Below are positions 50,324 to 50,565 of a DNA stretch of 60,056 nt, one piece after another. A program made the position numbers and the translations under genes. The stretch lies in NCBI GenBank assembly GCA_035651095.1, contig DASRGI010000089.1:1-60056 (forward strand), read 5' to 3'. The notes beneath the pieces were generated by a model, which was not told the DNA's origin, made no database searches, and was given only the letters and a program-made list of their open reading frames with translations. Positions within the stretch are counted from its first letter, which is position 1, and each line of letters starts with the position of its first letter. This DNA comes from Acidimicrobiales bacterium. Lineage in GTDB: Bacteria; Actinomycetota; Acidimicrobiia; Acidimicrobiales; JAUTXP01.

Positions 50324-50565
50324 TGGTGCGCCTGGTGGGATTCGAACCCACATCTCGCGGCTTACAAGGCCACTGCTCGTTGAAGCCAGGGTCGAAAAGG
50401 CCCTTCCTCCCTGCGTGCGCCTGGAGAGAATGTGCTCTGGCTCCTGCAGTAGCCAGAAGGCGTGTCGGCCCAGCGGAAGCGCGACGTGTCAAGACTCCAG
50501 AAAGCACACACGGGGTTCCCAGCACCCCCCTACTGCCAGCTCGTTTTCCATTGAGCTACAGGCGC
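50324..50565 (-). tRNA. tRNA-Thr(UGU) gene interrupted by a 164-nt insertion between D arm and anticodon arm
   Basis: Minus strand. 50565-50539: GCGCCTG TA GCTC AATGGAAAAC GAGC. Insert: 50538-50375. 50374-50324: A GTGGC CTTGTAA GCCGC GAGAT GTGGG TTCGAAT CCCAC CAGGCGC A CCA. The acceptor stem is 7/7 complementary. A 7-nt direct repeat AACGAGC sits at both junctions. Confidence 0.6.

Follow-up and report, generated by a model that had tools for sequence, protein, structure and literature searches.

A candidate dedicated tRNA with a structured D-loop domain heads a TDO-like/ArgRS-like gene cassette in Acidimicrobiales

Introduction

To our knowledge, bacterial tRNAs are compact and carry introns only in the anticodon loop. 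Here we analyse a locus in a 60,056-nt stretch of DNA from an Acidimicrobiales bacterium (GenBank assembly GCA_035651095.1, contig DASRGI010000089.1, positions 1 to 60,056; the whole stretch is called the window below), in which a tRNA gene is interrupted by a structured insert and stands before genes for a haem enzyme resembling TDO and a class I synthetase resembling ArgRS. An initial annotation, made from the sequence alone, had described two perfect tRNA parts split by a GC-rich structured insert of 164 nt, and this description held in full when sequence and coordinates were recomputed. It had also proposed a tRNA-Thr identity, a site at the junction of the D arm and the anticodon arm, and either a very recent disruption or an RNA that is used or processed as such. 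Comparison with homologous loci revises several of these points and points to a tRNA-dependent pathway or code variant in uncultured actinobacteria.

Results

The locus and the parts of the tRNA

The RNA gene lies on the reverse strand and is co-oriented with the genes downstream of it, which encode the TDO-like, the ArgRS-like and an HD-GYP-like protein. Its parts, its promoter and its two partner genes are as follows.

50324-50565 (-): whole RNA gene, 242 nt, tRNA plus D-loop domain, with discriminator A and an encoded CCA; based on the sequence and on homologues in L001, L002/3, L004, L007/8, L009, L010 (partial), L023/24, L025 and L026
50543-50565 (-): tRNA 5' segment, with acceptor 5' strand (50559-50565), U8 and A9, D-stem 5' strand GCUC (50553-50556) and D-loop AAUGGAAAAC with G18 and G19
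50379-50542 (-): inserted structured domain, 164-165 nt, out of the D-loop; based on lengths in nine loci, identity to L001, and Rfam and copy searches
50324-50378 (-): tRNA 3' segment, with D-stem 3' strand GAGC (50375-50378), A26, anticodon arm with UGU (50357-50373), 5-nt variable loop, T arm (50335-50351), acceptor 3' strand (50328-50334) and ACCA
50582-50609 (-): sigma-70-like promoter TTGACA-16-TACACT, ending 17 nt before the RNA 5' end; the sole promoter-like site in 50000-50900, where 0.1 is expected by chance
49106-50302 (-): TDO-like haem enzyme, 398 aa, a helical N-domain of about 220 aa plus a TDO fold (Pfam PF03301; profile search; AlphaFold model)
47523-49049 (-): ArgRS-like class I synthetase, 508 aa (Pfam PF00750, 5.5e-24)

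Read on the reverse strand, 50565-50539 gives GCGCCTGTAGCTCAATGGAAAACGAGC, which holds the acceptor 5' strand, U8 and A9, and a GCTC-loop-GAGC sequence. Beyond the insert, A26 (50374) is followed by an anticodon arm whose stem GTGGC/GCCGC encloses the loop CTTGTAA, a variable loop GAGAT, and a T arm GTGGG-TTCGAAT-CCCAC with the T-loop GTTCGAATC. The acceptor 3' strand CAGGCGC pairs with the 5' strand at seven of seven positions, and after the discriminator A comes the CCA (50326-50324).

Standard ARAGORN missed the interrupted gene in the native window sequence, and the Rfam tRNA model (RF00005) recovered only its 3' part, as a partial match at 50388-50335 (model positions 8-63, 29.9 bits); the native interrupted sequence gave no contiguous end-to-end score above the family threshold. 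When the insert was deleted in silico, ARAGORN called tRNA-Thr(tgt), so that the restoration of a tRNA proposed in the initial annotation stands.

Recurrence of the interrupted RNA beside the two enzyme genes

Homologous loci were taken as contigs encoding relatives of the TDO-like and ArgRS-like proteins of the window, each of which has few close relatives; the loci of three pairs are equal to each other (L002 and L003, L007 and L008, L023 and L024). The interrupted RNA is found in nine distinct loci and, in part, in one more. It is always upstream of, and co-oriented with, an ArgRS-like gene, and in eight of these loci also with a TDO-like gene. The anticodons are distributed as follows.

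Window, L001: UGU, interrupted
L002 (=L003), L004, L007 (=L008), L009, L025, L026: UAU, interrupted
L023 (=L024): UAA, interrupted
L010: 3' part only, at a contig end

The link is strict on the synthetase side. All 14 loci with an ArgRS-like gene (11 distinct cassettes, by tblastn) have the special tRNA, and among the 12 loci that have only a TDO-like gene, of a more distant kind (L006 and L012-L022), neither an ArgRS-like gene nor such a tRNA occurs. Flanking genes differ between the loci: thiC in the window and L001, rpoA-rplQ-truA...rplM-rpsI in L002, L009 and L010, a multicopper oxidase in L004 and L026, and sigma factors in L023. The RNA and the TDO-like and ArgRS-like genes therefore travel as a cassette, and the association of the RNA with the downstream pair, suggested for the window alone, is borne out across loci. 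In the most distant cassette, L025 (2120-6716), the interrupted tRNA (UAU) is accompanied by a 43-aa open reading frame (ORF) and by genes for a PRMT-like methyltransferase, a di-iron protein of the haem-oxygenase-like kind (PF14518) and a distantly related ArgRS-like protein (37% identity); it is the one recovered cassette in which the ArgRS-like gene is neither paired nor fused with a TDO-like gene.

Uninterrupted relatives of the tRNA also occur. L005 and L011, in which the gene order is reversed, have an uninterrupted 78-nt tRNA that is transcribed divergently, with anticodon UAA, a short variable loop and an Rfam score of 67-70 bits. These uninterrupted tRNAs share the acceptor stem (GCGCCUG) and the D stem of the interrupted ones. 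An exact-pattern DNA scan for the D-loop together with the AGTAGGG signature found no match in genome, metagenome and viral contig collections. A protein-based scan found no further homologues in the metagenome contig collection, and in genome contigs only the distant TDO-like loci L012-L022.

These comparisons bear directly on the idea of a tRNA-Thr pseudogene freshly broken by a small mobile element with target-site duplication. Such an event would fit the 7-nt direct repeat AACGAGC at the borders of the insert (50545-50539 and 50381-50375), and it would fit the failure of standard tRNA finders to see the gene. The repeat, however, is present only in the window and in L001, its closest relative, the other loci having a border repeat of just 2-4 nt (AA/CAA). 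No terminal inverted repeats were found at the insert, no second copy of it in the 60-kb window or in the fetched loci, and no IS/MITE-like or Rfam family match to it. The interrupted form is kept, with compensatory stem changes, across cassettes whose proteins are only 37-55% identical, and comparison of the window with L001 gives an identity of 96-98% for the tRNA parts and of 82% for the inserts. The comparative data refute the pseudogene, and we give it next to no credence; the very recent disruption that had been considered for the window is likewise abandoned.

Conservation of the cloverleaf and drift of the anticodon

With the insert removed in silico, ARAGORN called a tRNA in 11 of 11 sequences, the nine interrupted ones included. 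In the alignment of these 11 sequences, 99.1% of the cloverleaf cells are paired; sliding the partner columns lowers this to 26-42%. Eight pairs show compensatory changes, with both partners altered, and the covariation score of 0.40 compares with 0.18 for shuffled data. Every feature of a tRNA is present once the D stem is closed with the distal GAGC: a 7-bp acceptor stem, a 4-bp D stem, a 5-bp anticodon stem, a 7-nt loop with U33 and a purine at 37, a 5-bp T stem, a GTTCRAnYC loop, and G18G19. There is hardly any variation in the acceptor stem, where five of seven pairs are the same throughout; the discriminator is A, and CCA is encoded in four of the 11 tRNAs. The recurrence of the interrupted arrangement, together with the compensatory stem changes, is far beyond chance; of the two alternatives set out in the initial annotation, an RNA that is used or processed as such is the one that these data support.

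In the homologues the anticodon loop keeps the canonical form C-U-U-R-W-A-A/C, and the anticodon itself is UGU, UAU or UAA. The corresponding codons are among the rarest in the high-GC3 ORFs of the window (GC3, GC content at third codon positions), with ACA (read by UGU) at 1.4, AUA (UAU) at 0.57 and UUA (UAA) at 0.13 per 1000. Because the anticodon varies in this way and the genetic partner is derived from ArgRS, the label tRNA-Thr is unsafe and is not retained here.

The insert leaves the D-loop

The GAGC sequence occurs on both sides of the insert, and the D-stem strand GCUC could pair with either copy. With the distal strand, GAGC or GAGU directly before A26, pairing is Watson-Crick in 35 of 36 cells; with the proximal copy it is so in 23 of 36, the proximal strand being GGGU, GGGA, GGUU or GGGC in relatives. 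An unbiased MAFFT and RNAalifold analysis of eight full-length RNAs likewise pairs GCUC with the distal strand and assigns the proximal strand to a helix of the insert, P1. The uninterrupted relatives agree, as L005 reads GCUC-AAGCGGUCAA-GAGC where the interrupted L023 reads GCUC-AGCGGUCAA-[insert]-GAGC. For these three reasons the insert is placed inside the D-loop, between nucleotides 21 and 22, rather than at the junction of the D arm and the anticodon arm as first annotated.

In this arrangement the insert departs from the length-variable part of the D-loop, after nucleotide 20/21, and 3-4 nt (NAA) connect its other end to G22; G18 and G19 are retained. Its borders, whose exact positions are ambiguous by 2-7 nt, form an internal loop of 10 nt by 3-4 nt between the D stem and P1, and the 7-nt anticodon loop of the interrupted tRNA is intact. 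The alternative pairing of GCTC with the proximal strand, mostly via G-U, could form as a second conformer; it is not the conserved pairing. In the window and L001, the stretch 50375-50389 (-) can moreover be folded as a mini D-arm (GCUU-CAAC-GAGC), which the partial Rfam match uses. The RNA could thus conceivably switch between two D-stem pairings, of which the alternative is poorly conserved outside the window and L001.

Anatomy of the inserted domain

Across the nine loci the insert is 154-196 nt long. Its overall shape is a rod (P1, an AGUA/GAC internal loop, P2, and P3/P4) that ends in a junction with a CCGCUGG hairpin. In the window the elements are located as follows.

50536-50542 with 50383-50389 (-): P1, 5' strand GAGCUGG with CUGGCUU, 7 bp in the window; RNAalifold on the unbiased alignment, 90% of cells paired and G-C/A-U swaps in motif-anchored counts
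50531-50535 with 50390-50393 (-): CAGUA, 5' half of a sarcin-ricin/loop-E-like (bulged-G) internal loop by its sequence signature, with partner GACC
50525-50530 with 50394-50399 (-): P2, 5' strand GGGGGG with CUUUUC, mostly G-U in the window; 93% paired over eight RNAs, five of seven pairs changed on both sides
50512-50528 (-): local alternative hairpin GGGGU..ACCCC, overlapping P2
50504-50511 with 50413-50420 (-): P3, 5' strand GUGUGUGC with GCGCACGC; RNAalifold on the window and L001, equivalents in every group by hand alignment, partly recovered in the unbiased one
50495-50500 with 50421-50426 (-): P4, CUGGAG with CUCCAG, following P3, on the same basis
50464-50485 (-): P5 hairpin with the conserved loop UUCCGCUGG; in the hand alignment its stem is 100% paired, five of six pairs changed on both sides
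50436-50457 (-): P6 hairpin UCUGGCU..AGCCAGA, variable in length and sequence; compensatory differences from L001 (UCCGGUUCC..GGAACCGGA)

The distal D-stem, P1, P2 and part of P3 were recovered by MAFFT and RNAalifold without hand fitting. When P1 and P2 are anchored on the invariant loop between them, 91.7% of cells are paired, compared with 44-60% when slid, and eight of 12 pairs are changed on both sides, so that the covariation analysis suggested at the outset finds compensatory changes both in the cloverleaf and in P1/P2. Compensatory changes, such as those in P6 and at the P1 base, also separate the window from L001. P2 is weak in these two RNAs, and there the local GGGGU..ACCCC hairpin may replace it. 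For P3-P6 the alignment was hand-curated, with bulges taken out and linkers set to N; its figure of 96% paired is biased by this fitting, and the P3/P4 registers between groups are arbitrary. Subgroup runs of RNAalifold on plain MAFFT alignments give the same helices as the hand alignment, in which some RNAs have an additional P7. The loop motif CCGCUGG of P5 occurs in five of eight RNAs and is near-identical in L002, L009 and L023 despite unlike stem sequences. Two pairings drawn in pseudoknot order for the window, GCAGTAG/CTACTGC and TGTGC..TCTGG/CCAGAGCACA, are lost in the 82%-identical L001 insert and are given up, the other helices being conserved.

The internal loop between P1 and P2 reads 5'-(C/A)AGUA-3' opposite 5'-GA(C/A)(C/A)-3', with AGUA and GA invariant in the eight aligned RNAs. 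The letter after GA is C, except for A in L002 and L009, and the loop is flanked by helices and a Y-C mismatch. We take AGUA/GAC to be the letters of the sarcin-ricin loop and AGUA/GAA those of the loop E bulged-G motif. The likeness to the 23S rRNA sarcin-ricin loop and to loop E thus lies in a helix-flanked AGUA opposite GAC (GAA in two RNAs); it concerns a local motif, recognised here by sequence alone. AGUA is found between P1 and P2 in eight of the nine RNAs. The exception is L025, outside the eight-RNA alignments, which keeps the insertion site, P1 and P2 and differs in the internal loop and the interior.

Two further candidate features were rejected. By eye, no position of the insert switches between ACA and AUA along with the anticodon, as a T-box-like specifier would. 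A segment of about 24 aa in the TDO-like N-domain, considered for co-variation with the insert, is absent with the uninterrupted tRNAs and also from P0031, whose tRNA has the insert.

The conserved blocks and helices, which are catalytic-core-like, also raise the possibility that the insert is a new kind of intervening sequence, which would splice itself out, be taken out by a protein of the host or of the cassette, or be cut away with the ends left unjoined, as a nicked split tRNA; a 77-nt tRNA would then be charged by the ArgRS-like enzyme and used at ACA, AUA or UUA. Deletion of the insert yields a textbook tRNA in nine of nine cases, L005 and L011 are exactly insert-less, and the anticodon loops are canonical (CUURWAA) and always match very rare codons, as those of a decoding tRNA should. 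The bacterial tRNA group I introns (in tRNA-Leu UAA, tRNA-fMet, tRNA-Ile and tRNA-Arg) are similar in that they are structured RNAs inside a tRNA gene, which gives a normal tRNA once they are removed. All those known, however, sit in the anticodon loop, are at least 200 nt long and match Rfam group I models, whereas the present insert is in the D-loop, at 154-196 nt falls under or at the lower group I size limit, and has no match in Rfam, group I and II introns and self-cleaving ribozymes included (E<=10 for window 50200-50700, E<=5 for L002, L007 and L023). Intron-permissive ARAGORN forces introns into the anticodon loop, with inconsistent anticodons. The borders form an internal loop and no bulge-helix-bulge (BHB) can be drawn; the host is bacterial, and bacteria, as far as we know, lack the BHB splicing endonuclease. 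Introns of archaea and of Cyanidioschyzon merolae do interrupt the D-arm or D-loop region, but they are short, have a BHB and are cut by a protein endonuclease (PMC3695527, PMC9602550). The insert has also evolved vertically with the cassette. The site, Rfam, border, repeat and copy searches together uphold the earlier statement that the insert belongs to none of three classes, namely anticodon-loop group I introns, BHB introns, and MITE or IS elements, and the further copies that had been suggested as a search target were found neither in the window nor in the loci. We regard removal of the insert as a serious minority possibility.

The partner proteins

The AlphaFold model of the ArgRS-like protein (pLDDT 91.6) superposes on full-length ArgRS, best on 1f7u, the yeast ArgRS-tRNA-Arg complex (TM 0.81). 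Its layout comprises a short N-domain, a catalytic domain with HLGH and KMSSR, and a helical C-domain; Pfam finds no match to PF05746 or PF03485. Family members have lost the GNTGPYLQY loop, which in ArgRS stands where the anticodon-binding domain begins. Four residues of yeast ArgRS, E148, Y347, D351 and Q375, which are reported to bind arginine (Cavarelli et al. 1998), are replaced by Q/S, L/V, Y/F/L and Y in 13 of 13 family members, while three true ArgRS rows keep E/D, Y, D and Q. The enzyme is thus an ArgRS by descent and very probably not by substrate. ArgRS is among the synthetases that need tRNA for amino-acid activation (PMC2034488), and such tRNA-dependent activation would explain the constant presence of a dedicated RNA beside the ArgRS-like gene.

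A profile search aligns the C-terminal half of the TDO-like protein end to end with the bacterial TDO 2nox (3e-27), and the AlphaFold model matches only MarE, TDO and IDO structures. The proximal His, the carboxylate-binding Arg and GTGGT are invariant, and the distal His is Leu. Translation most likely starts at GTG 50302, 21 nt past the CCA; the mechanically assigned ATG at 50353 falls in the T arm. Fusions of the TDO-like and ArgRS-like proteins, 801-932 aa long, occur in at least four cluster representatives, P0031 (L023, 5001-7406), P0047, P0079 and P0085, and are strong evidence that the two enzymes work together. The wider TDO-like family has 245 representatives at E<=1e-10, of which P0118 and P0142 are fused to kynureninase-like domains (Aminotran_5 / KYNU_C) and one member lies in a Streptomyces nonribosomal peptide synthetase cluster. 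The fusions and this cluster tie the family to tryptophan-to-kynurenine chemistry.

Promoter, leader and surrounding genes

In L001, L002, L004, L007 and L026, boxes of the TTGACA/TACAAT type, recognised by eye, precede the RNA with a spacing equal to that in the window. The position of the RNA, co-oriented and 21-330 nt upstream of the first gene start in all nine interrupted loci, with no terminator-like site found between it and the downstream genes in the window, would also suit a cis-acting leader of the TDO-like/ArgRS-like mRNA, that is, a tRNA mimic bound by the synthetase for autoregulation in the manner of the thrS operator and not acting in trans as a tRNA. The distance to the start codon is highly variable for such a device, and no conserved expression platform (terminator/antiterminator or sequestered Shine-Dalgarno sequence) is present. 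A promoter of its own precedes the RNA, its ends are perfectly those of a tRNA and include discriminator A, CCA is encoded in the four tRNAs noted above, and the uninterrupted relatives are transcribed divergently from the genes. A leader that acts solely in cis is, in our judgement, improbable.

Several observations concern the surroundings. A hairpin of the form C4-5/N4-5/G4-5 (CCCCCAAAUAGGGG) stands directly upstream of the -35 box at 50611-50625 (-) of the window, at about 2366-2382 of L001 and about 5665-5681 of L002; found in three cassettes and two genomic contexts, it could be an insulating terminator of the cassette or an operator. An HD-GYP-type gene (PF13487) follows the ArgRS-like gene only in the window (44649-46337, -) and L001 (5739-7403), and is probably outside the cassette. 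On the opposite strand, thiC runs divergently from the tRNA cassette to 52467 (+) and is preceded by a thiamine pyrophosphate (TPP) riboswitch at 50666-50776 (+; Rfam 63.5 bits). Since its mechanically assigned ORF start, 50326, precedes the riboswitch, the real start of thiC must be after 50776. The nearest named relatives of ThiC belong to Acidimicrobiia/Acidimicrobiales metagenome-assembled genomes, with 79-83% identity. The sole standard tRNA that ARAGORN finds in the window is an ordinary tRNA-Arg(CCU) at 57551-57624 (+; Rfam 63.7 bits).

In L004 (3867-5339, -) and L026 (1653-3137, -), the multicopper oxidase gene lies directly upstream of the RNA and divergent from it. Phenoxazinone-synthase-type oxidases act on aminophenols of the kynurenine pathway, and this neighbour may be relevant to the chemistry of the cassette. 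Downstream of the L005 cassette, at a distance of about 1.6 kb, a gene (7873-8988, -) encodes a bacterial eRF1-like protein (baeRF family 10/12); it was seen in this locus only.

Discussion

That the RNA is a functional tRNA dedicated to this cassette is, on the conservation described above, highly probable. The fuller reading, which we favour with some reserve, is that the locus holds a dedicated non-canonical tRNA as the first gene of a cassette with a TDO-like haem enzyme and an ArgRS-like synthetase, and, as we lean to think, that the D-loop domain is retained. For the last step taken by itself, that the domain stays in the mature RNA, we hold the chances to be about even, well above those of removal.

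On this reading the RNA would be transcribed from its own promoter and its ends would be processed as in a tRNA. The ArgRS-like enzyme would then aminoacylate the ACCA end, and would probably need its tRNA even for amino-acid activation, as true ArgRS does. Because the enzyme has lost the acidic residues and the tyrosine that hold the guanidinium group, it probably charges something other than arginine; a tryptophan-derived product of the TDO-like enzyme, for example N-formylkynurenine or kynurenine, would be the best candidate. The retained domain would project from the variable region of the D-loop and could mark the RNA for its own synthetase or bar it from ordinary translation, which is the least certain step. 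The N-domain of ArgRS normally reads position 20 of the D-loop. Retention is favoured by the solvent-exposed exit point beside this position-20 contact, by vertical inheritance of the domain with the cassette, by the lack of an intron signature and by a motif that resembles a protein platform.

A number of points weigh against this reading. We know of no precedent, in a tRNA that takes part in translation, for an elbow domain that is roughly double the tRNA in size. When tRNAs are engineered as fusions with aptamers, they are usually no longer active in translation (PMC7590224). The tRNAs of L005 and L011 lack the insert precisely, as intron loss would give, and they indicate that the synthetase family can work with a plain tRNA. 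The enzyme pair of L025 would suit arginine chemistry instead, and the identity of the amino acid is pure inference throughout. The folding energy of the whole RNA is no better than that of shuffles (z = -0.16), a measure that is uninformative in sequence of 65% GC. In addition, there are only nine full sequences, all of them metagenomic, and in the P3-P6 part of their alignment, which was fitted by hand, pair counts are biased.

The same parts can be assembled into a natural code-expansion module like pyl. The TDO-like enzyme would make N-formylkynurenine or kynurenine, the ArgRS-like enzyme would load it onto the tRNA, and it would be inserted at the rarest sense codons (ACA, AUA or UUA) of high-GC Acidimicrobiia, the domain being a new small self-excising RNA or a built-in module for regulation or recognition. 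We think this scheme unlikely, though still worth stating.

Among known systems, the pyrrolysine (tRNA-Pyl, PylS, PylBCD) and tRNA-Sec systems are similar in combining, in a compact cassette, an odd dedicated tRNA, its own synthetase and a possible amino-acid-making enzyme. They are also similar in the idiosyncratic structure of the tRNA and in that the anticodon seems unimportant to the synthetase, since it drifts here. In contrast to these systems, the present tRNAs match rare sense codons and not stops, the synthetase is an ArgRS-derived class I enzyme and the D-loop domain measures about 165 nt; ribosomal use is hypothetical here. The tRNA-ProX/ProRSx pairs of Streptomyces and relatives (PMC10404621) offer another actinobacterial paralogous synthetase beside an anomalous tRNA, with an anticodon mismatched to the ancestral amino acid of the enzyme. 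The ProX tRNAs, however, are of normal size and are charged with Pro, whereas the present system has a remodelled amino-acid pocket, a coupled or fused TDO-like enzyme and an expanded tRNA. tmRNA, including its two-piece or permuted forms, resembles the RNA in having tRNA-like ends (acceptor, T arm and D-loop analogue) around a large structured insert, and it is aminoacylated; unlike the present RNA, which has a full cloverleaf and an insert from the D-loop, it lacks an anticodon arm and carries a tag frame and pseudoknots. The ARAGORN tmRNA search was negative, and the sole Rfam match in L023 is a 12-bit chance match to permuted tmRNA.

Full-text literature searches turned up no account of an ArgRS-like paralogue that has a tRNA of its own, of an insertion or intron in a bacterial D-loop, of a kynurenine-charging synthetase or of this cassette, and no ArgRS paralogue of this kind was found in two reviews (PMC9437257, PMC12945691). 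The D-loop domain and the ArgRS-derived, TDO-coupled enzyme are without precedent; otherwise the system, a tRNA with a dedicated synthetase, is of a known type. A tRNA whose D-loop holds a folded domain of double the tRNA's own size represents a new architectural class, and it is new whether it is an expanded tRNA or contains a new bacterial intervening sequence. Strictly linked to an ArgRS-derived enzyme without an arginine pocket and to a TDO-family enzyme that is sometimes fused to it, the RNA forms a self-contained module with these two enzymes. This module provides a testable case of tRNA-dependent small-molecule chemistry on a carrier RNA, or of natural sense-codon recoding, and synthetic biology could draw from it a tRNA/synthetase pair that is orthogonal by nature.

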